Assembly: GCA_018646865.1 (NCBI GenBank)
Contig: JABGTW010000031.1
Location: 2,106-66,105, forward strand
From: Cryomorphaceae bacterium
GTDB lineage: Bacteria > Bacteroidota > Bacteroidia > Flavobacteriales > Flavobacteriaceae
Length of the DNA stretch: 64,000 bases
Reading direction: 5' to 3'
The stretch's first letter is position 1, and every line of letters starts with the position of its first letter. This document shows positions 19,436 through 55,807 of the stretch, in pieces. Made by a program: the position numbers and the translations under genes. The notes beneath the pieces are model-generated. The model worked only from the letters and a program-made list of their open reading frames with translations, was not told where the DNA came from and did no database searches.

Positions 19436-20041
19436 ATGAGAGCTTTTTTTCATAATGCTAGAGTAATTATGTTTATTGCTGCAGTTTTACCGCTAGCTGT
19501 TTTTATATTTCCTATCTGGAATGTAACACTTGAGGCACCGCAATACCCAACACCCTTAGGTATAAATATTCATATAAATGATTTTTCTGATGTAAATCCA
19601 CATGATATAAAAAACATAAATCTTTTGAATCATTATATTGGAATGAAGTATATTCCAGATGCGATTCCAGAATTTAAAATTTTTCCATGGGGAATAATCT
19701 TGACATCAATTTTAGGTATTGTCATTTCTCTAAAATTTGAAAATAAATACTTTTTATACTGGTTTATTTTAATGTGCTTATTGAGTGCAGCAGGTCTGTT
19801 TGATTTCTACCTGTGGGAACATGATTATGGATATAACCTAGACTCAAAGGCTATACTTAAATTTACAAATGCAGATGGAACAGCTTTGGCATATCAACCT
19901 CCTGTGTTTGGAACAAAACAAGTATTAAATTTTACAGTTCATTCATATCCAAGATTAGGAGCATATTTTTTAGGATTTGGAATTATTCTATCACTTTACG
20001 CATTTAAACTTTCTAAAAATCTAAAATTAGATGTTAAATAA
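19436..20041 (+). CDS. nos-cluster integral membrane protein (tentatively NosB-like)
   Basis: 201 aa with about 4 TM helices. Its position directly after nosZ matches that of the clade-II-specific membrane gene. Identity is by position only. Confidence 0.55.
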   Translation: MRAFFHNARVIMFIAAVLPLAVFIFPIWNVTLEAPQYPTPLGINIHINDFSDVNPHDIKNINLLNHYIGMKYIPDAIPEFKIFPWGIILTSILGIVISLKFENKYFLYWFILMCLLSAAGLFDFYLWEHDYGYNLDSKAILKFTNADGTALAYQPPVFGTKQVLNFTVHSYPRLGAYFLGFGIILSLYAFKLSKNLKLDVK

Positions 20042-20486
20042 ACTCCATTTAATTGGTTTAATTTTTTTATTTATCTCGTGTAACTTTTCACCAGAACCTA
20101 TAAATTATGGGGTAGATGAATGTAATTATTGTAAAATGATTATAGTTGATAACGCTCATTCTTCGGAGATTTTTACAAATAAAGGTAAATCTTATAAGTT
20201 TGATTCAATAGAATGTATGGTAAATTACTTACATGAAAATCATGATACTGATTATGTTCAAAAACCTGATAAAACTTTAATATTAGTCAGTAATTTTAAT
20301 TCGCCGGGGAGTATGCTCAATGTTACAAATGCAAAATTCCTCATAAGTGAAAAAATATCAAGTCCTATGGGAGCAAATTTATCAGCTTTCACTTCAATTA
20401 AAGAAATTTTAGAAATAGACAATAATGCTCAAATATTAGACTGGAATACTCTAGTTGAGAACTTTAGAAATTTAATTCAAAATTAA
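20031..20486 (+). CDS. nosL: copper chaperone lipoprotein NosL
   Basis: 151 aa. Lipobox LFISC and the CNYCKM motif characteristic of NosL. Confidence 0.8.
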   Translation: MLNKLHLIGLIFLFISCNFSPEPINYGVDECNYCKMIIVDNAHSSEIFTNKGKSYKFDSIECMVNYLHENHDTDYVQKPDKTLILVSNFNSPGSMLNVTNAKFLISEKISSPMGANLSAFTSIKEILEIDNNAQILDWNTLVENFRNLIQN

Positions 20487-20490
20487 ATTA

Positions 20491-21744
20491 ATGGTACTTA
20501 ATGAAGTTATAATATCGAAGTCTAAATTATTATTTCTAATACTTTTATGGAGCTGTTTTATCAACTCGCAAACTATTGATGTTTGTAAGACTTGTAATTT
20601 CAAAACAATTAAGAAAGCAATTAAGTTTTCAAGTATAAATGATACAATATTTATACAAAAAGGAACATATAAAGAGTCTGATATTGAAATTAATAAACCA
20701 CTAATTATTATTGGAAATGACCGTCCAATAATAGATGGTGAATATGAAGGAGAGATTTTTAATATAAAATCAGACGATGTTATAATTAAAGGACTTAAAA
20801 TAGTCAATGTTGGTAAAAGCTACATAAAAGATTATGCTGCAATCAGAGTAATAAAAGCTAAAAACTTTAATATTTCTGATAATATTTTTGATAATCTTTT
20901 TTTTGGAATTTATATTGAAAAATCAAGTCATGGAGTCATTTATAATAATAAAATTTATGGTAATTCAAAAGAAGAGTATAGTTCAGGAAATGGAATACAA
21001 TTGTGGTACTCAAACGACATCTTGGTTTCAAATAATTATGTTACTGGAGTAAGAGATGGAATTTATCTTGAGTTTTCAGATAACTGTAAGATTATTTCAA
21101 ATACTAGTCATAATAATTTAAGGTATGGATTACACTTTATGTTTTCAGATAATGACATATATGAGAAAAATAGTTTCGTGGATAATGGAGCGGGTGTTGC
21201 TGTTATGTTTTCAAAACAAATTAACATGAATGATAATTTATTTAAAGATAATTGGGGTACAGCATCTTATGGTTTACTGCTTAAAGAAATAAATGATTCA
21301 AATATCACAAATAATATTTTTGATAAAAATACTACAGCAGTAAATATAGAGGGATCCAATAGATTAATTTTTAAGCATAATAACTTCACTAATAATGGTT
21401 GGGCAATTAAGGTAAGAGGTGCGTGTTACGCTAATAATTTTACTTATAATAATTTTATTTTTAATTCGTTTGATCTTTCTTATAATAGTTCAGTTAACGA
21501 TAATATTTTTGAAAATAATTATTGGAGTAGCTATAATGGATATGACCTAGATAATGATGGATATGGAGATGTTCCATACAGACCAGTCAAATTATTTACT
21601 TATATAGTTAATACTGTACCCGAAACTGTAGTTCTTCTAAGAGGTTTATTTGTACATATAATTAATTTTTCCGAAAAAGTTTCTCCTGTGTTTACTCCAA
21701 AAAAATTACTAGATCAAAATCCTCTAATGAATATTATAAGATGA
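20491..21744 (+). CDS. nosD: periplasmic beta-helix protein NosD
   Basis: 417 aa with a signal peptide. Many parallel beta-helix repeats (NNxIxGN-type). Overlaps nosF. Confidence 0.9.
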   Translation: MVLNEVIISKSKLLFLILLWSCFINSQTIDVCKTCNFKTIKKAIKFSSINDTIFIQKGTYKESDIEINKPLIIIGNDRPIIDGEYEGEIFNIKSDDVIIKGLKIVNVGKSYIKDYAAIRVIKAKNFNISDNIFDNLFFGIYIEKSSHGVIYNNKIYGNSKEEYSSGNGIQLWYSNDILVSNNYVTGVRDGIYLEFSDNCKIISNTSHNNLRYGLHFMFSDNDIYEKNSFVDNGAGVAVMFSKQINMNDNLFKDNWGTASYGLLLKEINDSNITNNIFDKNTTAVNIEGSNRLIFKHNNFTNNGWAIKVRGACYANNFTYNNFIFNSFDLSYNSSVNDNIFENNYWSSYNGYDLDNDGYGDVPYRPVKLFTYIVNTVPETVVLLRGLFVHIINFSEKVSPVFTPKKLLDQNPLMNIIR

Positions 21745-22475
21745 TACGTATAGAAAACTTACATAAAAATTTTAAGGAAAACATAGTCCTAAATGATATA
21801 GATTTAAAAGTTAAACCTAATAATGTTACTACAATAGTTGGACCTAATGGATCAGGTAAAACAACAATCATTAAATGTATTCTGGGAATGCTAATCCCTA
21901 AAAGAGGGAAAATTTATATAGATAATATAAATATTTCCAAGTCTCACACATATAGAAACTATATTACTTATTTACCTCAAGTTGAAAGCTTTCCTCCAAA
22001 TCTAAAGGTTCATGAACTTCTTGACATGATAAAAAATTTAAGAAATAATGACATTAGTTATCTTTCATTAGTCAATCATTTTAATTTAAAACAATATTTA
22101 CAACATAGAACTTCAACTTTATCTAAAGGAACTAGACAAAAAATCAATCTAGTAATTACTTTTATGTTTGATTGCCCAATTATTATTTTAGACGAGCCTA
22201 CTGCTGGTCTTGATCCAATTTCAGTAATTAAATTAAAAGAACTAATAGATATTGAAAAGAAAAAAGGTAAAACAATTCTTATTACATCGCATATCATGAG
22301 TTTTATTGATGAGGTTTCTAGTGAGATAATTTTGCTATCTGAGGGTCAGATTTTTTATAATGGATCAATTAAAAAATTGAAAAAAAATATTGTAAAGAAC
22401 AGGAATAATAAAAAATCTTATTTAACTGATTTAGAATATGCATTAACAAAAATAATTGATGAAAAAAATGTTTAA
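21741..22475 (+). CDS. nosF: ABC transporter ATP-binding protein NosF
   Basis: 244 aa. Walker A GPNGSGKTT, signature LSKGTRQK, Walker B IIILDEP. Confidence 0.85.
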   Translation: MIRIENLHKNFKENIVLNDIDLKVKPNNVTTIVGPNGSGKTTIIKCILGMLIPKRGKIYIDNINISKSHTYRNYITYLPQVESFPPNLKVHELLDMIKNLRNNDISYLSLVNHFNLKQYLQHRTSTLSKGTRQKINLVITFMFDCPIIILDEPTAGLDPISVIKLKELIDIEKKKGKTILITSHIMSFIDEVSSEIILLSEGQIFYNGSIKKLKKNIVKNRNNKKSYLTDLEYALTKIIDEKNV

Positions 22476-23250
22476 AATTCTAAAATATTGTTTATCTGAT
22501 TTGATGAGAAGTCATTGGATACTTTTTTATTTTTTGTTTTATCTTCTTATTGGATTTGGATTATTACTCATAAATACAAGTTTTTCAAATACAATTATTA
22601 CTTTATTAAATATTATAATTGTTTTATCTCCTTTAATTTCATCTGTATTTGGCATAACATATTTTTATAATTCTAAAAACTTCACTCAACTATTATTAGC
22701 TCAACCAATTGATAGAAAAAAGATTTTTATTGCACAATACCTGGGAGTATCATTTTCTTTATCATTGAGTTTGATTTTAGGTTTATCAATCCCTTTTATC
22801 CTTTTCGGTATTTTAAGTTCACAAAATTTATATGAGTTTATATTATTACTGGGAATATCTTCAGTTTTGACATTTATATTCTCTTGTATATCATTCTACA
22901 TAGGTATTTTAAACAACAATAAACTAAGGGGGTTTGGATTAACTGTTGTTGTATGGCTAATTATGGCAGTTGTTTATGATGGATTAATAATGATTTTGTT
23001 AATGATATTTAGAGAATATCCCTTAACGAATCCTTCATTAATTGCTATGCTACTTAACCCAATAGATTTAGCAAGAACAGTATTGATAATTAATCTAGAT
23101 TTATCTGCACTTTTGGGATATACAGGAGCAAGTTTTAAATTATTTTTTGGAACATTTTATGGAATTATTATTTGCACAATATCCCTTTTAATTTGGTTAT
23201 TCATCCCTTTGACACTTTTAATTAGAAGAATTGAGAATAAAGATTTCTAA
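22456..23250 (+). CDS. nosY: ABC-2 type permease NosY
   Basis: 264 aa with about 6 TM helices. Overlaps nosF by 20 nt. Confidence 0.8.
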   Translation: MMKKMFKILKYCLSDLMRSHWILFYFLFYLLIGFGLLLINTSFSNTIITLLNIIIVLSPLISSVFGITYFYNSKNFTQLLLAQPIDRKKIFIAQYLGVSFSLSLSLILGLSIPFILFGILSSQNLYEFILLLGISSVLTFIFSCISFYIGILNNNKLRGFGLTVVVWLIMAVVYDGLIMILLMIFREYPLTNPSLIAMLLNPIDLARTVLIINLDLSALLGYTGASFKLFFGTFYGIIICTISLLIWLFIPLTLLIRRIENKDF

Positions 23251-23534
23251 ATGGCAAGATTTAATATAATTACAATAATATTATAAACTAGGCTAGTTAT
23301 AATTAAATTGAAAATTATTTTATAAGATTGAACTGATAATACAGCAGCATTATAAATACTACATATAAATACTGCAATTCCTATTTGAATCCAATTAATT
23401 AAATTATATCCATTCATCATTATCACCATAACAGCAATTGATCCCACTAGAGTTGAAATCACAATACCTATAGAAGAATTAAATCTATAATTATCTCTGA
23501 AAGCTAACTTGACACTATTATATTTATTAATCAT
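23247..23534 (-). CDS. small 3-TM membrane protein (unknown function)
   Basis: 95 aa from the ATG at 23534 (a GTG lies at 23537). Three hydrophobic helices. Its 3' end overlaps the nosY stop by 4 nt. Its start overlaps the stop of the upstream Cys-rich small ORF. Confidence 0.55.
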   Translation of the reverse strand: MINKYNSVKLAFRDNYRFNSSIGIVISTLVGSIAVMVIMMNGYNLINWIQIGIAVFICSIYNAAVLSVQSYKIIFNLIITSLVYNIIVIILNLAI

Positions 23535-23646
23535 CACAATTTTTATTATTATGTTTTTTAACTGAAGAACATGTTTTGTGTTTCTTATCTAAAGATTTGT
23601 CTTTGCATTTTTTGCCTGAAGAACAGGACTTACATTTCTTATTCAT
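23527..23646 (-). CDS. candidate 39-aa Cys/Lys-rich small protein (not in the ORF track)
   Basis: My translation is MNKKCKSCSSGKKCKDKSLDKKHKTCSSVKKHNNKNCDD*. It has 5 Cys and 13 Lys, with an internal repeat K[ST]CSS[GV]KK. It overlaps the downstream ATG by 8 nt. It is preceded by a promoter module shared with the nos operon. Confidence 0.4.
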   Translation of the reverse strand: MNKKCKSCSSGKKCKDKSLDKKHKTCSSVKKHNNKNCDD

Positions 23647-23667
23647 TTTTATTGACTTTATAATGAA

Positions 23668-23675
23668 TAAAATTA
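23668..23675 (-). promoter_or_regulatory. -7-like promoter box TAATTTTA (minus strand)
   Basis: Differs from the nos -7 box TAATTTTG only at the last base. It has the same 18-nt spacer after the operator module, and lies 21 nt upstream of the small-ORF ATG. Confidence 0.4.
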
Positions 23676-23697
23676 TGCTTAAAGACTAAGATGAAAG

Positions 23698-23711
23698 ATG
23701 ATAATAATCAT
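23698..23711. promoter_or_regulatory. second FNR/CRP-type operator ATGAT-N4-ATCAT
   Basis: ATGATAATAATCAT, sitting inside the 16-bp palindrome GATGATAATAATCATC. On the minus strand the 18-mer ATGATTATTATCATCTTT is 17/18 identical to the nos promoter copy. Confidence 0.5.
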
Positions 23712-23748
23712 CATATCTTAAAAAAAGGTATATTAAAAAAAACAAGTT

Positions 23749-24051
23749 ATGAGAATTATATATTTTATATTATGCGTTTTAGGAATTGCGTTACCTTATT
23801 ACAATTTGATCAATTTTCTTAAAGTTAATAATTGGTCAATGGATGGTTTTTTCAGTCTTTTATATGAAAATTATGCTGTATCAATGTTGTCAATGGATTT
23901 AACTGTAGCTGCTAGCTCTTTTTTAATTTTCTTAATTTATAAAAACAGAAAATCTCCTTTGAAAATTTTTAGATATTTAGTTCCAATGTTTTTAGTAGGA
24001 TTTTCTTTAGCATTGCCTTTATATCTTTATGACAATCATGATTCTAACTAG
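23749..24051 (+). CDS. DUF2834-like small membrane protein
   Basis: 100 aa with 3 TM helices. The pattern LPYYNLINFL...SLALPLYLY resembles DUF2834 family members as I remember them. Confidence 0.5.
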   Translation: MRIIYFILCVLGIALPYYNLINFLKVNNWSMDGFFSLLYENYAVSMLSMDLTVAASSFLIFLIYKNRKSPLKIFRYLVPMFLVGFSLALPLYLYDNHDSN

Positions 24052-28105: not shown

Positions 28106-29131
28106 GTGAAAAAATTGAAATTTTTATTATATCCTTTATCACTCATATATGGACTATATACATCTTTTCGAAACTTTCTTTTTGATCTTGGTATAATTGA
28201 TTCAATTGTTTATAAAATTCCTACTATAGGGGTTGGAAATCTGTCTACAGGTGGAACAGGAAAATCAATTGTAGTTGATTACATTATAGAAAAACATAAA
28301 CATAAAAACAAGATTACAACTTTAAGTAGAGGTTATAATCGAAATACTAAGGGATTTATTCAAGCATCAAAAAAATCAACTGCTTATGAGATTGGCGACG
28401 AACCATTTCAATTTTATTCTAAGCATCCAGAAATTAATGTAGTTGTATGTGAAGATAGAAGAAAAGGAATGAATATTATTTTAAAGAACTTACCTAATAC
28501 TGATTTTTGTATCTGGGATGATGTTTTTCAACATAGATTTGTAAAACCTGGTTTAATGATACTAACTACAACTTTTCAATATCCTTTTTATAAAGATGAA
28601 ATTCTTCCAATTGGAAATCTAAGAGAAAATAAAAGCTCTGCTAAAAGAGCTGATTTTATTGTTGTTACAAAATGCCCTGATAATTTATCTAAAAAGGATA
28701 AAAACTTGTTTATTCAATCATTAAATCCTGTTGAAAATCAAAAAGTATTCTTTAGCTCTTTGACGTATTTGCAAAAAATTAAATCACAATCTGAAGAAAT
28801 TGATATTGATGTCTTAAAAGATGATAATTTTATTTTAGTCACAGGTATAGCAGACTCTTCCTATCTGGTAAATTTTTTAAAACTTAAAGATTTAAAGTTT
28901 AAACATCTTAGATACTCAGATCACTATAACTTTAACAAATCATCAATAGATAAAATATCTGAATTATCATTAAATAAAAAAATTCTAACTACTGAAAAAG
29001 ATTTTGGTAGACTCAATCCAAAAATAAATAATCGAGATATATTTTATATTGAGGTAGGACTGAAATTTCCTAACGAAATAAATGAAGATGATTTTGATAG
29101 TTATTTAGAGGGGTACTTAAAAAGAGATTAA
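28106..29131 (+). CDS. lpxK: tetraacyldisaccharide 4'-kinase
   Basis: 341 aa with a GTG start. P-loop [11 protein letters not shown] and DDVFQHR. Confidence 0.9.
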
Positions 29132-30054
29132 TGAATATGTTTATGAGCTTTATAAGAAGATCTAACTAACGGTCCACTTTCAACATGTCTAAACCCCATT
29201 TCTTTACCAATTATCTCATATTCTTTGAACTCTTCAGGAGTTATAAAATCTTTAACTGGTAAATGTTTTTTTGATGGTTGAAGATATTGACCTAAAGTTA
29301 CAATGTCAACTCCTATATTACGCAGCTCTTTCATTGTTTCTAATACTTCTTCTTTTATTTCACCAAGACCAAGCATTATACCTGATTTAGTTCTATTAAT
29401 ACCATTATCCTTTAAATATTTTAATACTTCTAAACTCCTGTCATATTTAGCTTGAATTCTAACTTCACGAGTAAGCCTTCTAACAGTTTCAAGATTATGA
29501 GAAACTACTTCAGGAGCAACTTCTATAATTCTATCTATATTTTCAGTTTCACCTTTAAAATCAGGTATTAAAGTCTCAATTGTAGTTTTAGGATTTAAAT
29601 CTCTAACAGCATTAACTGTCTCTGCCCAAATAATTGATCCTCCATCTTTTAAATCATCTCTATCTACTGAAGTTATTACGGCATGTTTAACTCCCATAAT
29701 ACTTATAGACCTAGCTACTTTGAAAGGTTCCAACTCATCCGCAGGTAAAGGGCTTCCAGTTTGAACATTACAAAAACCACATGATCTAGTACAAATATTA
29801 CCAAGAATCATAAAAGTCGCCGTTCCTTCTGTCCAACATTCTCCCATATTAGGACAATTCCCAGAAACACATATTGTGTGAAGATTATTTTTTTCAACAG
29901 TTGATCGAAGTTGCGTATATTTTTTTCCAATAGGAAGTTTAACTCTAATCCAATCAGGTTTCTTAATTCTAATTTTTGTATTGGATTCTTTTTTGGAAAT
30001 ATTAAGCTTTACCCAACCCTGATTTACTGTTTTTGTCTCCGACATACTCAACAA
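29128..30054 (-). CDS. lipA: lipoyl synthase
   Basis: 308 aa. Auxiliary cluster CPNMGECW and radical-SAM [10 protein letters not shown]. Confidence 0.95.
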
Positions 30055-30063
30055 AGATACAAA

Positions 30064-31275
30064 CTAAATAAACCTAGTCAAAATATACCCAAGTGCAAAA
30101 AAGGTAAGAAATAAAATACCTATTATACTCAGAATTCTCAGAGCTTTGGAGGGTTTATGTGATTCAGGCATATTTTTACTCATTATCAATTTATAATTTA
30201 AAATTGCATAAAAAGGGGCTGTTATAAAAGATAATATAGTAGCTAATTCAACTAATGCTCCCATTTCAGAGAGTAAAAAATAAAATATTAACATTGTACC
30301 TACTGCCAAAGCAGATATCCACTGAAAATAATAATTTTTGTTATTATTCGTTAATAGTTGTGTAGCTCTAGACATTGTCCTTGGCGATGCATCTAGGCAT
30401 GTGATGGTTGTGCTTAGCATTGTAGTAAATGCACAAATTGAAATTATTAAATAAAAACTATCACCCAAGTTAGATGTATATAATTCAATAAGTTGATTAG
30501 CAAAAATACCTCCACTATTTGAAAAACTTATGCCAGAGTTATACATTACTAGTGCACCTAAACTAACAAAACAAACACCTAAAATAACAGTTGCAAAATA
30601 TCCTACATTGAAATCAAATAAACTTTCTTTTGGAGTTATTTTTTGATTCTTTTTTTTCTCAAGAGTCCATAAAGAATGCCAAATTGAAATATCAAGGGGG
30701 GCAGGCATCCATCCCATAAATGCTACTAAAAAAACCAAACCACTTCCTGTTGGAAATATTTGTTTAAAGCTATAAACCTCCTGAGCATTTATTGACGCAA
30801 CTCCAGTTGAAAATAGTGTGCTAATTGCTAAAATTAAGATTATGACTTTTATCATTTTATCTAAAACCTTGTATTTGCCAAGTAATAATATCCCATAGCA
30901 AATAATGGTAATTATAAGACTCCAAATAACCATATTGTCAGTTACTCCAAAAAGACTGGAAGCAAGCCCAGCTGTTACTATTGTAACCGCTGTTTGAATA
31001 GTAAACATTGTTGCTAAATTTAAAATGAAGTAAGTAATTAAAAACACTTTACCAACCTTGTAATATCCATCAAGTAAACTTTCACCAGTTGCCATAGCAT
31101 ATCTGGGGCCATATTGAAAAAAAGGATATTTAAAAATATTAACTAGTATTAAAGCCCAAATTAAACCCCAACCAAAGTCAGCTCCCGCTCGAGTTGATTG
31201 AACTAGGTGGGATACTCCAATTGCAGCTCCTGCAAAAAGTAAACCTGGTCCAAGTTTGGAAATTATTTTAATCAT
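30064..31275 (-). CDS. Nramp family divalent metal (Mn2+/Fe2+) transporter
   Basis: 403 aa with about 11 TM helices. The N-terminal GPGLLFAGAAIGVSHLVQSTRAGA resembles the Nramp/MntH signature region. Lies 9 nt upstream of lipA. Confidence 0.8.
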   Translation of the reverse strand: MIKIISKLGPGLLFAGAAIGVSHLVQSTRAGADFGWGLIWALILVNIFKYPFFQYGPRYAMATGESLLDGYYKVGKVFLITYFILNLATMFTIQTAVTIVTAGLASSLFGVTDNMVIWSLIITIICYGILLLGKYKVLDKMIKVIILILAISTLFSTGVASINAQEVYSFKQIFPTGSGLVFLVAFMGWMPAPLDISIWHSLWTLEKKKNQKITPKESLFDFNVGYFATVILGVCFVSLGALVMYNSGISFSNSGGIFANQLIELYTSNLGDSFYLIISICAFTTMLSTTITCLDASPRTMSRATQLLTNNNKNYYFQWISALAVGTMLIFYFLLSEMGALVELATILSFITAPFYAILNYKLIMSKNMPESHKPSKALRILSIIGILFLTFFALGYILTRFI

Positions 31276-33950: not shown

Positions 33951-34032
33951 GCGGGTGTGGTGAAATTGGTAGACACGCTAGACTTAGGATCTAGTGCCTA
34001 ACAGCTTGGGGGTTCGAGTCCCTTCACCCGCA
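33951..34032 (+). tRNA. tRNA-Leu (anticodon TAG)
   Basis: Cloverleaf read by eye. Acceptor stem GCGGGTG/CACCCGC plus discriminator A. Anticodon stem CTAGA/TCTAG with loop CTTAGGA. Long variable arm. T-loop GGTTCGAGTCC. No encoded CCA. Confidence 0.9.
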
Positions 34033-34281
34033 CTATTTTTCTTTTAATTTTTTCAATTCTTTTATTATACTATCCATTTGATTCATTTGGTGATTATGTG
34101 ACAGATAATGATTTTCTTTTCTATAACGTTCTTGTTCGATATCTTCCATAGGTCCAAAAATAAAGAATCCTAAACTAAAGACTGTAATAAATACAATAGT
34201 AAAAATCGATACAATTACTGATATAAAAGTAAGTAAGATTTTTATATAATTTTTAGAATTATAGAACTTGATTAAATTCAT
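34033..34281 (-). CDS. small single-TM protein, paralog 2 (hypothetical)
   Basis: 82 aa. Shares its architecture and motifs with the upstream 79-aa ORF. Its stop codon abuts the tRNA-Leu 3' end. Confidence 0.5.
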   Translation of the reverse strand: MNLIKFYNSKNYIKILLTFISVIVSIFTIVFITVFSLGFFIFGPMEDIEQERYRKENHYLSHNHQMNQMDSIIKELKKLKEK

Positions 34282-38435: not shown

Positions 38436-38477
38436 TAGATCCTTTTTTCCAAAAATACTTTTTTAATTTTGTTTTCG

Positions 38478-39608
38478 ATGAAAAAAATTAATATGGTTGA
38501 CCTAAATGGTCAATACCGAAAAATTAGATGGCAAGTTAATAGAGAGATGAAAAAAGTGATTAATTCATCATCATTCATTAATGGTCCAGTTGTAAAGGAA
38601 TTCCAAAATAATTTACAGCAATATCTAGATGTAAAACATGTTATTCCTTGTGCTAACGGTACCGATGCTCTTCAAATTGCTCTTATGGCTCTTGATTTAA
38701 AAAGAGGTGATGAGGTTATCACAACCAACTTTTCTTTTGCTTCAACTATTGAGGTTATACTTTTACTAGGTCTAAAACCAGTTGTAGTTGACATAGATTC
38801 AAGAACTTTCAATATAAACCCAAGTTTAATACAAGATAAAATTACTGATAGAACGAGAGCTATAATTCCTGTACACTTATTTGGTCAATCTTGTAGAATG
38901 GAGGAAATATTAGAAATAGCAAACAAAAATAATCTTCAAGTAATAGAAGATAATGCTCAAGCACTAGGGTCTAAATACAAATTTTCAAATTCTCATAAGC
39001 AAATGGCTGGAGCTATTGGAGATATTGCAACAACATCCTTTTTCCCATCAAAAAATCTTGGTTGTTATGGAGATGGAGGTGCTATTTTTACAAATTCAGA
39101 TACTCTAGCCTACAAGATGAGAGGTATTGTCAATCACGGAATGTATGAAAGGTACTATCATGATGAAATTGGAGTAAATTCTCGTCTAGATTCTATTCAA
39201 GCAGCAATATTGAATGTTAAGTTAAAGTACCTAAATAAATATAATATAAGTAGACAGGAAGCTGCTAATCTGTATAATAAGAGTTTTGAGGGAATAGATG
39301 AAATTGAAGTGCCATTTGTTGAATCAGATGTTGATTCGCATGTATATCATCAATACACATTAAAAATTAACAATGGAAAACGAGATGAATTAGCCGACCA
39401 TTTACAAAAAAATAATATTCCATTTGGAATCTATTATCCGCTTGGTTTCCATGAGCAAAAGGCATATAAACAAGAATTTATATCTGATAATGACTTTCCT
39501 GAAACAAATAAAGTAAAGGGTGAGGTTATCTCTTTGCCGATGCATACTGAGCTTACAAAAAAACAGATTAAGTTTATAACAAATACAATTATTAGTTTTT
39601 TTGAATAA
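38478..39608 (+). CDS. DegT/DnrJ/EryC1/StrS family sugar aminotransferase
   Basis: I prefer the ATG at 38478 over the tracked TTG at 38469. NGTDALQIAL and the PLP-Lys region SFFPSKNLG. Confidence 0.85.
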   Translation: MKKINMVDLNGQYRKIRWQVNREMKKVINSSSFINGPVVKEFQNNLQQYLDVKHVIPCANGTDALQIALMALDLKRGDEVITTNFSFASTIEVILLLGLKPVVVDIDSRTFNINPSLIQDKITDRTRAIIPVHLFGQSCRMEEILEIANKNNLQVIEDNAQALGSKYKFSNSHKQMAGAIGDIATTSFFPSKNLGCYGDGGAIFTNSDTLAYKMRGIVNHGMYERYYHDEIGVNSRLDSIQAAILNVKLKYLNKYNISRQEAANLYNKSFEGIDEIEVPFVESDVDSHVYHQYTLKINNGKRDELADHLQKNNIPFGIYYPLGFHEQKAYKQEFISDNDFPETNKVKGEVISLPMHTELTKKQIKFITNTIISFFE

Positions 39609-47645: not shown

Positions 47646-47675
47646 TTTGAAATATATATTTTTTTTATACTTTTG
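47646..47675 (+). promoter_or_regulatory. Bacteroidota-type promoter (-33 TTTG, -7 TACTTTTG) for the metK operon
   Basis: TTTG at 47646-47649, then TACTTTTG (TAnnTTTG) at 47668-47675 after an 18-nt spacer. This implies a 5' UTR of about 100 nt. Confidence 0.45.
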
Positions 47676-47680
47676 TATAG

Positions 47681-47783
47681 AACAGAGGAAGGATTTGACT
47701 GATTGCAACCTCTTAAAAAAATTGCTAAAGCAGTAATTCTTTTTACTCGCAATCTTTCATTCTATTTCTCACAAATTTATTTT
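47681..47783 (+). promoter_or_regulatory. structured metK 5' leader; candidate SAM-responsive pseudoknot riboswitch (SAM-II/SAM-V-like, class unresolved)
   Basis: P1 AGAGG (47684-88) pairs with CCTCT (47709-13). Loop GCAA (47705-08) can pair with the 3' tail TTGC (47722-25), which is preceded by an A7 tract and followed by TAAAGC. An alternative helix is GATTGC (47701-06) with GCAATC (47749-54). The leader sits in front of metK-metY-metX. Confidence 0.35.
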
Positions 47784-51710: not shown

Positions 51711-51741
51711 TTTGTTTTTATGTATACCTATTATACTTTTG
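51711..51741 (+). promoter_or_regulatory. Bacteroidota-type promoter (-33 TTTG, -7 TACTTTTG) for the aromatic amino-acid operon
   Basis: TTTG at 51711-14, a 19-nt spacer, then TACTTTTG at 51734-41. The leader ATG follows 7 nt later. Confidence 0.5.
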
Positions 51742-51748
51742 TTTAATA

Positions 51749-51811
51749 ATGACAAATAATTTTAATTTTTATTATAACTATTATTACTTCTTTAATCAGA
51801 AGAAAGGATAA
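51749..51811 (+). CDS. Phe/Tyr-rich leader peptide (20 aa) of the pheA operon
   Basis: ATG ACA AAT AAT TTT AAT TTT TAT TAT AAC TAT TAT TAC TTC TTT AAT CAG AAG AAA GGA TAA encodes MTNNFNFYYNYYYFFNQKKG. It has 4 Phe and 5 Tyr. It lies between the promoter and a terminator hairpin that abuts pheA. Confidence 0.6.
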   Translation: MTNNFNFYYNYYYFFNQKKG

Positions 51812-51840
51812 CTATGTTATAAAAAGAAATTAAATATACT

Positions 51841-51868
51841 AGTCCTGTCAAATCAGGACTTTTTTTTT
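51841..51868 (+). terminator. intrinsic terminator (attenuator) upstream of pheA
   Basis: AGTCCTG-tcaaat-CAGGACT gives a 7-bp perfect stem followed by T8. It ends 2 nt before the pheA ATG. Confidence 0.75.
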
Positions 51869-51870
51869 AT

Positions 51871-52683
51871 ATGAAAGTATCAATTCAAGGAATTAAAGGA
51901 TCATTTCACCATATGGTGGCAAATCATTATTTTGATTCATTTGAGTTAAATGAGTGTTTGACTTTTGAGAGCCTTGTTAAATCAGTAGTTAATAATGAAT
52001 CAGAGTATGGAATAATGGCTATAGAAAATTCAATTGCAGGTTCTATACTCCCTAACTATGCTCTTATAGATGAGTATAATCTTTCAATTATTGGAGAATA
52101 CAGTTTAAGTATAGATCATAATTTAATGTGTCTTCCAAATCAAAATATTACTGAAATTAAAGAAGTTCACTCTCATCCAATGGCGTTATTACAATGTTCT
52201 AAGTTCTTTAGTAATTACCCTCATATTAAATTAATTGAAACTGAGGATACCGCTTTATATGCTAAAAATATAAGAGATAATAAGATCAGTGGTGTAGGAG
52301 CAATTGCAAGTTTAGATGCATCTAAAATATATACTTTGCAAATTTTGGAATCTTCTATTCAAACTATCAAAAATAATAAAACGCGATTTGTAATTCTTGA
52401 AAAGAATAAAAATAATAAAATGGACTATGATAAAGCTGCTCTTAAATTTATTCTTGATCATAAAAGAGGAAGTTTAGCCACAGTATTGAATATGATGAGT
52501 GATTGTAGTTTAAATCTTACAAAGATTCAATCTTTACCAGTTATTCAAACTCCTGGCAAATATGCATTTTTTGTTGACATTACTTTCAAATCAATTGAAA
52601 ATTACCAAAAAGCAGTTAAAATTATTGAATTAATGGCTCAAGAATTTAAAATTCTAGGTGAGTATAAATATCAAAAATCATGA
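51871..52683 (+). CDS. pheA: prephenate dehydratase
   Basis: 270 aa. PDT domain (AIENSIAGSI, TRF) and a C-terminal ACT domain. Confidence 0.9.
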   Translation: MKVSIQGIKGSFHHMVANHYFDSFELNECLTFESLVKSVVNNESEYGIMAIENSIAGSILPNYALIDEYNLSIIGEYSLSIDHNLMCLPNQNITEIKEVHSHPMALLQCSKFFSNYPHIKLIETEDTALYAKNIRDNKISGVGAIASLDASKIYTLQILESSIQTIKNNKTRFVILEKNKNNKMDYDKAALKFILDHKRGSLATVLNMMSDCSLNLTKIQSLPVIQTPGKYAFFVDITFKSIENYQKAVKIIELMAQEFKILGEYKYQKS

Positions 52684-53528
52684 AAGTTGGTATAGTAGGT
52701 TTAGGTTTAATAGGTGGATCTGTTGCTTTAAAATTAAAGGAAGTAAATAATAATATTACTATTTATGGTTTTGATCAAAATAATCGTTCACTCGACTTTT
52801 CATTGAAAAATGAAATTATTGATAAAAAGTTTGATCCTGACTCATTATTAGACTTTGATTATTTATTTCTTGCAATACCAGTTGAATCAATTAAAAAACA
52901 ACTAAAAAGTATTCTAGATAAAATATCTGAAAAAACTTTAGTAATTGATTTAGGTTCAACAAAATATGAAATTTGTAACTCTATAAAAAATCATAATAAA
53001 AGAGAAAACTTTTTAGCAGCCCACCCTATAGCTGGTACAGAATTTTCAGGTCATGTTGCAGCAAAAAAAGATTTATTTGACAATAAGGTTATGATTTTGT
53101 GTGAAACTGAAAACACAAACTCTATTTTACTTTCAGGCGCAATTAAAATCTTTAAAACTTTAGGAATGAGTATTAAGACAATGGATTCAATAGATCATGA
53201 TAAACATATTGCCTATGTATCTCATTTGTCTCATATTTCATCTTTTATGTTAGGTAAAACAGTAATGGATAAAGAGGACAATGAACAGACAATTTATGAT
53301 ATGGCAGGAAGTGGGTTTGAATCAACTGTCAGATTAGCAAAAAGTTCTCCTGAAATGTGGTCTTCAATTTTTATTGAAAACAAAAAAAATATTATTGAAT
53401 CTCTTGAGGAATACATATTAAATATTAATAATTTTAAAAAGTTAATTGAAAGTAGTGATCAAGAGAATCTTAATGCTGAGATGAAAAAAATCAATGGAAT
53501 TAAAGGAATTTTAAAAGGAATTAACTAG
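52680..53528 (+). CDS. tyrA: prephenate dehydrogenase
   Basis: 282 aa. NAD fold VGIVGLGLIGGS and HPIAGTE. Confidence 0.85.
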   Translation: MKVGIVGLGLIGGSVALKLKEVNNNITIYGFDQNNRSLDFSLKNEIIDKKFDPDSLLDFDYLFLAIPVESIKKQLKSILDKISEKTLVIDLGSTKYEICNSIKNHNKRENFLAAHPIAGTEFSGHVAAKKDLFDNKVMILCETENTNSILLSGAIKIFKTLGMSIKTMDSIDHDKHIAYVSHLSHISSFMLGKTVMDKEDNEQTIYDMAGSGFESTVRLAKSSPEMWSSIFIENKKNIIESLEEYILNINNFKKLIESSDQENLNAEMKKINGIKGILKGIN

Positions 53529-53534
53529 AAAATT

Positions 53535-54617
53535 ATGGAAAATAAAAAAGAGTATAGGAATTGGCTTAATAAGATGAATTTGGATCATCCTCTTGTTATT
53601 GCTGGGCCATGTAGTGCGGAAACTGAAGAACAAGTTTTAAAAATTGCACATGAGTTAAAAGATACTGATGTAAGTGCGTATAGAGCTGGTATTTGGAAAC
53701 CAAGAACAAGACCAGGAATGTTTGAAGGAGTAGGTGCAATTGGATTGAAGTGGTTAGAAAAAGTAAAAAAAGAAACAGGCTTATTAATTGCAACAGAGGT
53801 TGCAAATTCTGTTCATGTTGATCTAGCACTAAAACATGATGTTGATATATTATGGATTGGAGCAAGATCAACTGTAAGTCCATTTATTGTTCAAGAAATT
53901 GCAGATGCATTAAAGGGAACAGACAAGACAGTTTTAATAAAAAATCCTGTTAATCCTGATTTATCTCTTTGGATGGGTGGTGTAGAAAGAATTTATAGTG
54001 CAGACATAAAGAATATTGGGGTTATTCATAGAGGTTTCTCTTCATATGATAAGTCTAAATATAGAAATAATCCTGAATGGCAAATTGCTGTTGAATTTCA
54101 AAATAATTTTCCAGATATTCCTCTGATATGTGATCCTTCTCACATAGCAGGTAAAAGAGATTTAATATATGATTTAAGCCAAACATCACTGGATCTAAAT
54201 TATGATGGTTTAATGATTGAATCTCATTGGGATCCTGACAATGCATGGAGTGATGCTGCACAACAGGTTACGCCTAAAAGTTTAATTCAAATAATGAAAG
54301 ATCTTAAAATAAGAGAGAAGACTTCTCAGGGAGAAGATTATCAAAATCAATTAAATAATTTGAGATCTCAAATTGATGTTGCAGATCAAAATTTATTGAC
54401 AACGCTAGGTAAAAGAATGAAAGTTGCAAAAAATATCGGGAAACTAAAGTCAGATAATAATGTCGCAATACTTCAAAATAAAAGATGGAATGAGATATTA
54501 GGTAAGATGATTTTAGATGGAGAAGACCATGGATTAAGTGAAGAATTTATACTAAGATTTTTTAAAGCAATACATCAAGAATCTATTAATAACCAAAAGA
54601 AAATTTTAAATAAATAA
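53535..54617 (+). CDS. bifunctional 3-deoxy-7-phosphoheptulonate synthase / chorismate mutase
   Basis: 360 aa. Type I-beta DAHP synthase core (AGPCSAE, WIGARS, CDPSH) fused to a C-terminal chorismate mutase type II helix bundle (LRSQID..D..LL..L..R). Confidence 0.9.
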   Translation: MENKKEYRNWLNKMNLDHPLVIAGPCSAETEEQVLKIAHELKDTDVSAYRAGIWKPRTRPGMFEGVGAIGLKWLEKVKKETGLLIATEVANSVHVDLALKHDVDILWIGARSTVSPFIVQEIADALKGTDKTVLIKNPVNPDLSLWMGGVERIYSADIKNIGVIHRGFSSYDKSKYRNNPEWQIAVEFQNNFPDIPLICDPSHIAGKRDLIYDLSQTSLDLNYDGLMIESHWDPDNAWSDAAQQVTPKSLIQIMKDLKIREKTSQGEDYQNQLNNLRSQIDVADQNLLTTLGKRMKVAKNIGKLKSDNNVAILQNKRWNEILGKMILDGEDHGLSEEFILRFFKAIHQESINNQKKILNK

Positions 54618-54625
54618 TCAAAAAA

Positions 54626-55807
54626 ATGTTATCAGATAAAATCAATTCATTACCAATTTCGCAAACTGTAGCAATGACTGCTAAAGCTCATGACTTAAAG
54701 AATCAAGGTGTAGACGTTATTACTTTAAGCGCAGGTGAACCTGACTTTAATATACCTGATTATATAAAGGAAGCAGCCATCGCGGCTATAAATGAAAATT
54801 ATCATAAATATTCTCCAGTTGATGGATTTTTAGATCTTAAAAAAGCAATTTGTAAAAAATTTAAAAGAGACAATAATCTTGATTATGAAACTGATCAAAT
54901 TGTTGTATCTACTGGAGCTAAACAATCTATTGCTAATGTATGTATGTCTCTTATAAATAAAGGTGATGAGGTAGTGATTCCAACTCCCTATTGGGTAAGT
55001 TATAGTGCTATGGTATCTCTTGCAGATGGAATACCAGTATTTGTTCATCCAGATGAGGATGCAAATTATAAAGTAACTGCAGAACAGCTTGAGTCTGCAA
55101 TTACTGAAAAAACAAAAATGATAATGCTTAATTCGCCGAATAACCCAAGTGGTTCGGTATTTAGTCAAGAAGAATATTTGGAATTCTCAAAAGTTTTACA
55201 AAAATACCCTGATGTAATTGTTGTATCAGACGAAATATACGAACATATAAATTATGGTTCTAAAAGTGTAAGTTTTGCAAGTCTACCTGGAATGTATGAA
55301 AGAACTGTAACTGTAAATGGAATATCTAAAGCATTTGCAATGACAGGTTGGAGAATAGGGTATCTAGCAGCTCCAAAATTTTTAGCAAAAGCATGCAATA
55401 AAATGCAGGGCCAAATTACAAGTGGTGCTAATTGTATTGCACAAAGAGCTGCAATTAAAGCATTGGAAGAATCTCCGGAAAGGATTAAATATATGGTTGA
55501 TGAATTTAAAATTAGAAGAGATTTAATAATTGATCTAGTCAATCAGATTAATGGATTTAAAATCAAGCATCCTCCATCTGGAGCATTCTATATTTTTCCA
55601 GAAATCTCAAATTTATTTGGAAAAACATTTAGTGGCCAAACTGTAAATACTGCAAATGATTTGTCAATGCTAATTTTAGAAAAAGCTCATGTTGCTACTG
55701 TCCCTGGTGACGCATTTGGTTATCCAAATTGCATAAGAATTTCATATTCAGCATCTAAAGAACAAATAGAGGAAGCGATAAGAAGAATTAAAGATCTTTT
55801 ATCTTGA
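54626..55807 (+). CDS. class I PLP-dependent (aspartate/aromatic) aminotransferase
   Basis: 393 aa. NSPNNPSG and SKAFAMTGWRIGY (PLP Lys). Confidence 0.9.
   Translation: MLSDKINSLPISQTVAMTAKAHDLKNQGVDVITLSAGEPDFNIPDYIKEAAIAAINENYHKYSPVDGFLDLKKAICKKFKRDNNLDYETDQIVVSTGAKQSIANVCMSLINKGDEVVIPTPYWVSYSAMVSLADGIPVFVHPDEDANYKVTAEQLESAITEKTKMIMLNSPNNPSGSVFSQEEYLEFSKVLQKYPDVIVVSDEIYEHINYGSKSVSFASLPGMYERTVTVNGISKAFAMTGWRIGYLAAPKFLAKACNKMQGQITSGANCIAQRAAIKALEESPERIKYMVDEFKIRRDLIIDLVNQINGFKIKHPPSGAFYIFPEISNLFGKTFSGQTVNTANDLSMLILEKAHVATVPGDAFGYPNCIRISYSASKEQIEEAIRRIKDLLS

Follow-up and report, generated by a model that had tools for sequence, protein, structure and literature searches.

Genomic context

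The window, by which we denote the whole stretch of 64,000 nt that was analysed, has a G+C content of about 30%. It carries, on the forward strand, four genes of aromatic amino acid biosynthesis: pheA, a tyrA-type prephenate dehydrogenase gene, a gene encoding a DAHP synthase fused to chorismate mutase (aroG/CM) and an aminotransferase gene (Table 1). In PheA, the window shares 89% identity with 'Cryomorphaceae bacterium MED-G11' (order Flavobacteriales) and around 60-64% with cultured Flavobacteriaceae. An earlier note on this DNA had described, directly in front of pheA, a promoter, a short ORF in which nine of eleven codons specify Phe or Tyr, a 7-bp terminator hairpin and an alternative helix, and had read the ensemble as a leader-peptide attenuator. 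All of these elements were found in place, and the codon content of the leader matches the gene context, in which enzymes of the Phe and Tyr branches are combined with the DAHP synthase/chorismate mutase.

The leader is preceded by an OsmC-like gene that runs in the same direction and ends 47 nt before the leader ATG, a compaction that is consistent with a streamlined genome. A SAM-II (long-loop) riboswitch at 47679-47738 (79.9 bits) heads the genes for SAM synthetase (metK), a Cys/Met PLP enzyme, an alpha/beta hydrolase and the OsmC-like protein. In the region 47646-47738 the sequence TTTG-N18-TACTTTTG ends at 47675, 3 nt before the match to this riboswitch. Elsewhere in the window, positions 20001-24000 have an unusually low G+C content (0.247 versus about 0.30), and a single tRNA-Leu gene was found at 33951-34033.

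Table 1. Features of the pheA leader and of the genes downstream, in positions of the window
Feature	Position	Strand	Basis
-33 promoter element, TTTG	51711..51714	+	sequence; lineage conservation
-7 promoter element TACTTTTG, Bacteroidota sigma-A type	51734..51741	+	sequence; position; conservation
Predicted transcription start (predicted 5' UTR of 2-3 nt)	51746..51747	+	inferred from promoter spacing
Leader ORF, 20 codons, MTNNFNFYYNYYYFFNQKKG and TAA	51749..51811	+	sequence; conservation
Regulatory codon run (sensor), nine F/Y among 11 codons	51761..51793	+	sequence; lineage comparison
Long AU-rich '1:2'-like helix (anti-antiterminator), F/Y codons 51761-51785 with 51807-51834	51761..51834	+	minimum-energy fold, window-specific prediction
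Small hairpin, last Phe codons UUCUUU with GAAGAA	51788..51804	+	minimum-energy fold; RNAalifold
Antiterminator 5' arm (segment 2), overlaps Gly codon and leader stop	51805..51818	+	folding; covariation
Antiterminator 3' arm, holds 6 of the 7 nt of the terminator 5' arm	51833..51846	+	folding; covariation
Intrinsic terminator, 7-bp stem AGUCCUG/CAGGACU, 6-nt loop and U tract	51841..51868	+	sequence; terminator scan; folding
Regulated genes, pheA to aminotransferase	51871..55807	+	ORF list and Pfam matches
pheA, prephenate dehydratase	51871-52683	+	Pfam
tyrA-type prephenate dehydrogenase	52680-53528	+	Pfam
DAHP synthase fused to chorismate mutase (aroG/CM)	53535-54617	+	Pfam
Aminotransferase, class I/II	54626-55807	+	Pfam

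The leader ORF and its conservation

The first structural gene is preceded by a short ORF that is rich in codons for the amino acids of the operon: codons 5-15 read F N F Y Y N Y Y Y F F, and the TAA stop follows at 51809-51811. Such a run is exceptional in its surroundings. As a chance control, ORFs of 10-45 codons that begin with ATG were collected from the two strands of the window, 883 in number; the leader is the only one with more than six Phe or Tyr codons in any stretch of 11. First-order Markov simulations yielded, per 128 kb, 0.65 ORFs with at least seven such codons and none with at least nine.

Within the lineage of the window, the aromatic positions of the peptide exchange Phe for Tyr and vice versa (TAT for TTT, TAC for TTC) or vary between synonymous codons, the frame and the position of the stop are kept, and the insertions and deletions are multiples of three. 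Such variation is the signature expected of selection acting on translated codons. No Shine-Dalgarno sequence was found at the leader ORF of the window, as is expected for the Bacteroidota, in which initiation has been described as relying on unstructured start regions and not on Shine-Dalgarno pairing.

For a wider comparison, one genome per species was taken and 80 Flavobacteriales loci were collected by PheA alignment. In 76 of them, an automated search recovered upstream of pheA an ORF that begins with ATG, spans 16-29 codons, encodes 6-12 aromatic residues and is followed by a T6-T9 tract. Inspection of the other four revealed two leaders that start with GTG, one leader with a mis-scored hairpin (L012) and one locus that lacks upstream sequence. 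An F/Y(/W)-rich leader with a terminator precedes pheA in all 79 evaluable species loci of the Flavobacteriales. The two GTG-initiated leaders encode (M)TNLNYTFYNWYYFFFGKRAETLFV (L059, 2860-2940) and (M)RNNNTYYNWFYYFFS (L067, 2810-2870). A scan of metagenomes added some 33 contigs of the window lineage (PheA 78-100% identical), all with a leader; most metagenomic contigs in which PheA is only 44-53% identical bear F/Y/W-rich leaders as well. The comparison of upstream regions of related pheA genes supports the reading in the earlier note, in that the Phe/Tyr leader, the terminator and, as set out below, the antiterminator are conserved and covarying.

A conserved Trp codon lies within the aromatic run of many leaders of the Flavobacteriaceae, as in TYYNWFYFFF (L006, L015, L017, L023, L026, L030, L033, L040, L041, L066, L074 and others). 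The leader of Flavobacterium psychrophilum likewise includes a Trp codon, whereas the window lineage is devoid of any. The DAHP synthase of the operon is common to the synthesis of Phe, Tyr and Trp, so that a response to Trp as well is possible in some lineages. One of the contigs that were recovered (L020, CAVBJB010000057.1) is labelled 'Lachnospiraceae bacterium'. Its pheA resembles those of the Flavobacteriaceae (60% identical), its leader is rich in Phe codons and its -7 box reads TACATTTG; the contig looks like mis-binned Bacteroidota DNA.

Promoter and predicted transcription start

The two promoter elements upstream of the leader are separated by 19 nt, and the -7 element ends 7 nt before the leader ATG (51749). 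The arrangement TTTG-N19-TAnnTTTG is retained in about 33 contigs of the window lineage and fits the Bacteroidota consensus. Matches to the pattern are no more frequent in the window than chance would give (4 found, 3.1 expected); the support for this promoter comes from its position and its conservation. An internal check on the geometry is provided by the SAM-II riboswitch, the match to which is preceded by the same -7 motif.

In F. johnsoniae, transcription starts 4-5 nt downstream of the -7 element, and the mapped promoter of the F. psychrophilum pheA leader has, according to the supplementary data of Guerin et al. (PMC9723704), a G at -5. The spacing in the window therefore predicts a 5' UTR of 2-3 nt. 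In every member of the lineage (about 37 sequences) the -7 element lies 5-9 nt ahead of the leader ATG, which gives a predicted 5' UTR of 1-5 nt throughout; the interval widens to 16-18 nt in many of the marine Flavobacteriaceae and to 27-32 nt in Flavobacterium. So short a 5' UTR is atypical for the Bacteroidota (87% of the leaders in F. johnsoniae exceed 10 nt), and efficient and fast ribosome loading is for this reason an assumption in what follows. Translation of the leader peptide from a transcript with a 5' UTR of about 1-5 nt, in the streamlined marine lineage formed by the relatives of 'Cryomorphaceae bacterium MED-G11', is accordingly proposed here with reserve, as a conjecture whose chances we put slightly below even. 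If it is true, a ribosome that does not use Shine-Dalgarno pairing must engage a near-leaderless RNA so quickly that its coupling to RNA polymerase is maintained for about 100 nt.

A comparable spacing was noted for two other genes of the window. In both a lipoyl-synthase-like radical SAM gene (29128-30045, reverse strand; region 30046-30082) and a DegT-family aminotransferase gene (38478-39608, forward strand; region 38464-38480), only 6 nt separate the -7 box from the ATG. With the pheA leader ORF counted, a -7 box could be recognised no more than 80 nt from the start of nine window genes, and three of these show near-leaderless spacing. Near-leaderless initiation might be frequent in the source genome, in which case the attenuator would be a natural reporter for it.

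Terminator and antiterminator

An intrinsic terminator is located between the leader ORF and pheA. Its hairpin (51841-51860) has a predicted energy of -10.4 kcal/mol and was also detected by the terminator scan; the T tract extends to 51868 (nine T, including the closing T) and is followed by AT and by the pheA ATG at 51871. The terminator is invariant in 32 sequences of the lineage. Over 76 loci (alignment A2) 98.1% of the cells are paired, with changes on both sides at seven of the nine pairs, against at most 50% in slid controls. The 5' arm occurs as AGUCCUG, AGUCUCG, AUCCUG, AUCCCG, AGUUCCG, ACCCUG or AGCCUCG, and the 3' arm covaries with it. According to the same scan, terminator-like sites are absent between the metK...OsmC operon and this hairpin, which may in the window lineage additionally stop read-through from the upstream genes.

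The 5' arm of the terminator can alternatively be sequestered by a helix that pairs 51805-51818 with 51833-51846 through ten Watson-Crick pairs and two G-U pairs, with two mismatches. At -5.3 to -7.1 kcal/mol this antiterminator is weaker than the terminator. On an alignment made with MAFFT and not fitted to the structure, 83.4% of the cells are paired (28-46% in slid controls; none of 500 shuffles was as good) and changes on both sides occur at six of seven pairs, in 75 cells. The segment that pairs with the terminator 5' arm changes in step with it, taking the forms AGGAU/GGGACU, CGAGAC/CGAGGC, GGGAU, GGAACU, CAGGGU and CGAGGU. Within the lineage, the outer part of the helix is 98% paired.

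RNAalifold returned no structure for the nascent-transcript alignment (A3), in which MAFFT had misregistered some groups by 1-5 columns; the named structure was for that reason tested directly, and an alignment-free swap test was added. In the latter, each terminator arm was combined with its own upstream region or with foreign regions, taken from loci that have a different terminator arm. The mean energy was -7.3 kcal/mol with the own region versus -4.1 kcal/mol with foreign ones, and in the matrix of arm classes the diagonal was best or near-best except for a single class (ATCCTGA), which reflects a boundary effect of the mask. The covariation of terminator and antiterminator spans around 75 loci, by which measure the helix put forward in the earlier note is real and conserved.

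Other folds of the leader

Folded as a whole, the leader is more stable than its dinucleotide shuffles (z = -3.95). Besides the terminator, the RNAalifold consensus of 32 lineage leaders contains a single helix, of four pairs (51788-51791 with 51798-51801). It corresponds to the small hairpin formed by 51788-51793 and 51799-51804 in the fold of the window, and a UUCUU...AGAAG motif is seen across the family (alignment A2). A role of this hairpin as a pause or anti-antiterminator element is possible.

A further, long AU-rich helix appears in the minimum-energy fold of the window, where it is predicted to remove the antiterminator as long as no ribosome is present, much as the classical 1:2 hairpin does. 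We do not count it among the conserved parts of the element: across 32 leaders of the lineage its pairing reaches 75%, compared with 48-64% for slid controls, and it did no better than shuffles. As far as the comparison of sequences goes, the conserved core consists of the two competing hairpins and of the small one in which the last Phe codons pair with the purine-rich codons behind them. The 'two-hairpin' description in the earlier note is apt for this core, but perhaps not for the sequence of the window itself, to which the minimum-energy fold adds the long helix, a feature that the note does not mention. Folded without a ribosome, 49 of the 76 leaders are predicted to adopt the antiterminator by default; for 20, among them that of the window, the prediction is the terminator, so that the logic of an untranslated leader is not uniform across the family.

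Ribosome position and the proposed mechanism

To model the effect of a translating ribosome, we barred the nucleotides under its footprint from pairing and folded the nascent transcript as far as the terminator loop. For the window, placing the A site at any of the codons 5-15 gave the proposed antiterminator as the minimum-energy structure, with a pairing probability of the arm of at least 0.94. The antiterminator was lost from codon 16 onwards, and nothing paired with the arm from codon 18 onwards or with the ribosome at the stop. Over 76 loci, the mean probability of the antiterminator core was 0.96 in the stalled state (at least 0.5 in all 76) and 0.00 at the stop, where the outcome is partly built in since segment 2 lies inside the masked footprint. 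In silico, a stalled ribosome permits the antiterminator and a terminating ribosome prevents it, in line with the original observation that the leader stop is located inside the 5' arm of that helix. When the full-length leader was folded to equilibrium the terminator won even with a stalled ribosome; the switch must therefore be kinetic, as it is in classical attenuators.

We propose the following mechanism. Transcription would begin about 2-3 nt ahead of the leader AUG, and a ribosome would translate the 20 codons as RNA polymerase proceeds. When Phe and Tyr are ample, the ribosome would reach the stop codon (51809-51811) and cover 51805-51818 with its footprint. The nascent segment 51841-51847 could then pair only with 51854-51860, the terminator would form and transcription would end at the U tract, just 2 nt short of pheA. 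A shortage of Phe or of Tyr would instead stall the ribosome within codons 5-15 and leave 51805-51818 free to pair with 51833-51846 before the 3' arm of the terminator has been made, which would result in read-through into pheA. If the leader of the window were left untranslated, its F/Y codons would fold onto 51807-51834, likewise favouring termination.

It thus appears highly probable that the element is a ribosome-mediated transcription attenuator of the pheA-tyrA-aroG/CM-aminotransferase operon, which senses the supply of charged tRNA-Phe and tRNA-Tyr. The elements themselves, their conservation, the covariation of both helices and the footprint folding all support the reading as a Phe/Tyr leader-peptide attenuator that had been given to the sequence at the outset; translation of the ORF, the transcription start and the actual response to the amino acids are inferred.

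Relation to known attenuators

The closest known system is that of F. psychrophilum, in which Guerin et al. (2021, ISME Commun, PMC9723704; SI D9 and Table S7) mapped a 170-nt 5' segment upstream of pheA. As described in those sections, the leader has a mapped start and is transcribed as a discrete segment whose expression profile is its own, the terminator is read through under specific conditions and transcription of the pheA operon is highest in minimal nutrient media. The same source reports that the element is conserved in other genera of the Flavobacteriaceae and that it has no match in Rfam, both of which were reproduced in the present analysis. In the parts of the article and its supplement that were consulted, we saw neither an antiterminator model nor a covariation analysis for the F. 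psychrophilum element.

The two elements have in common their place directly upstream of pheA and a peptide with an aromatic run followed by a terminator. They differ in layout. The F. psychrophilum element (peptide MNTNNTFYSNNSFYFYWNIGRDCYMVI, terminator with a U9 tract) has a mapped 5' UTR of 20 nt and a leader of 27 codons, one of them for Trp, and precedes a pheA-aspC3 operon; in the window the leader has 20 codons and lacks Trp, the promoter lies 7 nt from the ATG and the terminator 2 nt from pheA, and the operon includes tyrA and aroG/CM. A covariance model (R1) was built from 68 leaders outside the window lineage together with the F. psychrophilum sequence. It recovered the window element at 51779-51866 with 55.6 bits (E about 4e-6), the next match scoring 23 bits. 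By this criterion of sequence and structure the window element, which comes from an uncultured marine lineage, is a member of the Flavobacteriaceae pheA family of Guerin et al.

At the gathering thresholds of Rfam, no leader family (Phe_leader, Trp_leader, Bacteroid-trp and leu/phe leader among them) matched the window or 18 related loci, and in a permissive scan of the region the only match to a leader family was Trp_leader, at 16 bits against a threshold of 41 bits. A literature search for an earlier comparative-genomics report of a pheA attenuator in the Bacteroidota returned Guerin et al. (2021) only; Vitreschak 2004 and Lopatovskaya 2010 lay outside its reach. Naville and Gautheret (2010) mention neither pheA nor the Bacteroidetes, and Baez 2019 does not mention leader peptides.

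In principle the element resembles pheL-pheA of E. coli (Rfam Phe_leader) and the trp, his, leu and thr leaders, with which it shares an ORF rich in codons for the product of the operon and the mutual exclusion of antiterminator and terminator. In this classical class the position of the ribosome is described as the sensor (PMC3082878, PMC1183508). The window element nevertheless has no similarity to the proteobacterial leaders in sequence or by covariance model. It also differs from them in that its leader, which has no Shine-Dalgarno sequence, combines codons for Phe and for Tyr, both of which are products of the operon, and in that its 1:2-like segment is not supported by covariation. In E. 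coli, pheL is a Phe-only leader and tyrA is under the control of TyrR.

Translation from a leaderless transcript occurs for some leader ORFs of the Actinobacteria. The leader peptides of trpE, leuA, ilvB and aroF in Corynebacterium glutamicum belong to the Actinobacteria, in which leaderless mRNAs are common, and have no homology to the window element; the aroF leader peptide (PMC3890552) is a precedent for a leader in front of a gene of the aromatic pathway. Within the Bacteroidota, the Bacteroid-trp leader (Rfam RF01692) was reported as a cis-regulatory RNA motif (Weinberg et al. 2010, PMC2864571). In the account of Guerin et al. (PMC9723704) it is called a tryptophan peptide leader RNA and mapped before the trp operon of F. 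psychrophilum. It concerns another operon and another amino acid, and at Rfam thresholds it matched neither the window nor the 18 related loci.

Alternative explanations

The close spacing of terminator and gene also suits a different reading, in which control is mainly translational and the hairpin at 51841-51860 with its U tract would govern the access of ribosomes to pheA, modulated by translation of the leader. In 44 of the 76 loci the end of the U tract is no more than 10 nt away from the pheA start codon (0 nt in several, 2 nt in the window), so that on read-through transcripts the tract would constitute the entire translation-initiation region of pheA, in a phylum for which a requirement for unstructured start regions has been described. 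However, a hairpin followed by 7-9 U is a canonical terminator, and it is retained even where pheA starts 40-110 nt further downstream; in F. psychrophilum, moreover, the leader is transcribed separately and read-through depends on the conditions, as stated in the supplement of Guerin et al. (PMC9723704). We therefore regard mainly translational control as improbable. Translational control may add to termination, not replace it, and the short gap between terminator and pheA is suggestive of a coupled layer of translational control or of U-rich enhancers of initiation.

More improbable still is a switch that binds a ligand, a tRNA or a protein (a riboswitch, a T-box-like element or protein-mediated attenuation) and in which the ORF would be incidental. 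A pair of competing terminator and antiterminator helices is found in riboswitches too, and no leader family of Rfam matches. Yet no conserved aptamer was found, the only conserved structure beyond the two helices being a hairpin of 4-6 bp, and conservation tracks the codons (aromatic class, frame and stop) rather than the nucleotides. Segment 2 is always placed between -26 and +15 nt relative to the leader stop codon, which makes sense only if the ribosome is the effector.

That the hairpin is a mere terminator of the co-directional metK...OsmC genes, with the F/Y-rich ORF a by-product of AT-richness, might be suggested by the nearby end of the OsmC-like gene, by the lack of another terminator-like site before pheA and by the commonness of TTT and TAT codons at about 30% G+C, but it is contradicted by the comparative sequence data and hardly credible: the leader ORF is a unique outlier in the window, its codon class is preserved through exchanges of Phe and Tyr, the antiterminator covaries with the terminator, and ORF and terminator stay beside pheA in the 45 of 73 loci where the upstream neighbour lies on the opposite strand, so that the terminator belongs to pheA and not to the upstream gene.

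Biological implications

The ribosome-mediated attenuator favoured here is of a kind that was already known, its homologue having been described for F. psychrophilum in the sections cited of PMC9723704, and the current understanding of attenuation is not changed by it. What is added to that description is an explicit antiterminator, covariation for both helices, the phylogenetic spread and the predicted near-leaderless layout that is specific to one lineage. The first three of these are sufficient to define a family in the manner of Rfam. The supply of Phe and Tyr, acting through the speed of the ribosome, probably controls the synthesis of aromatic amino acids across the Flavobacteriales and, within them, in abundant marine lineages that have not been cultured. 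In the window lineage, the compact version with its predicted near-leaderless start could be a simple test system for Shine-Dalgarno-independent initiation and for the coupling of transcription and translation in the Bacteroidota.
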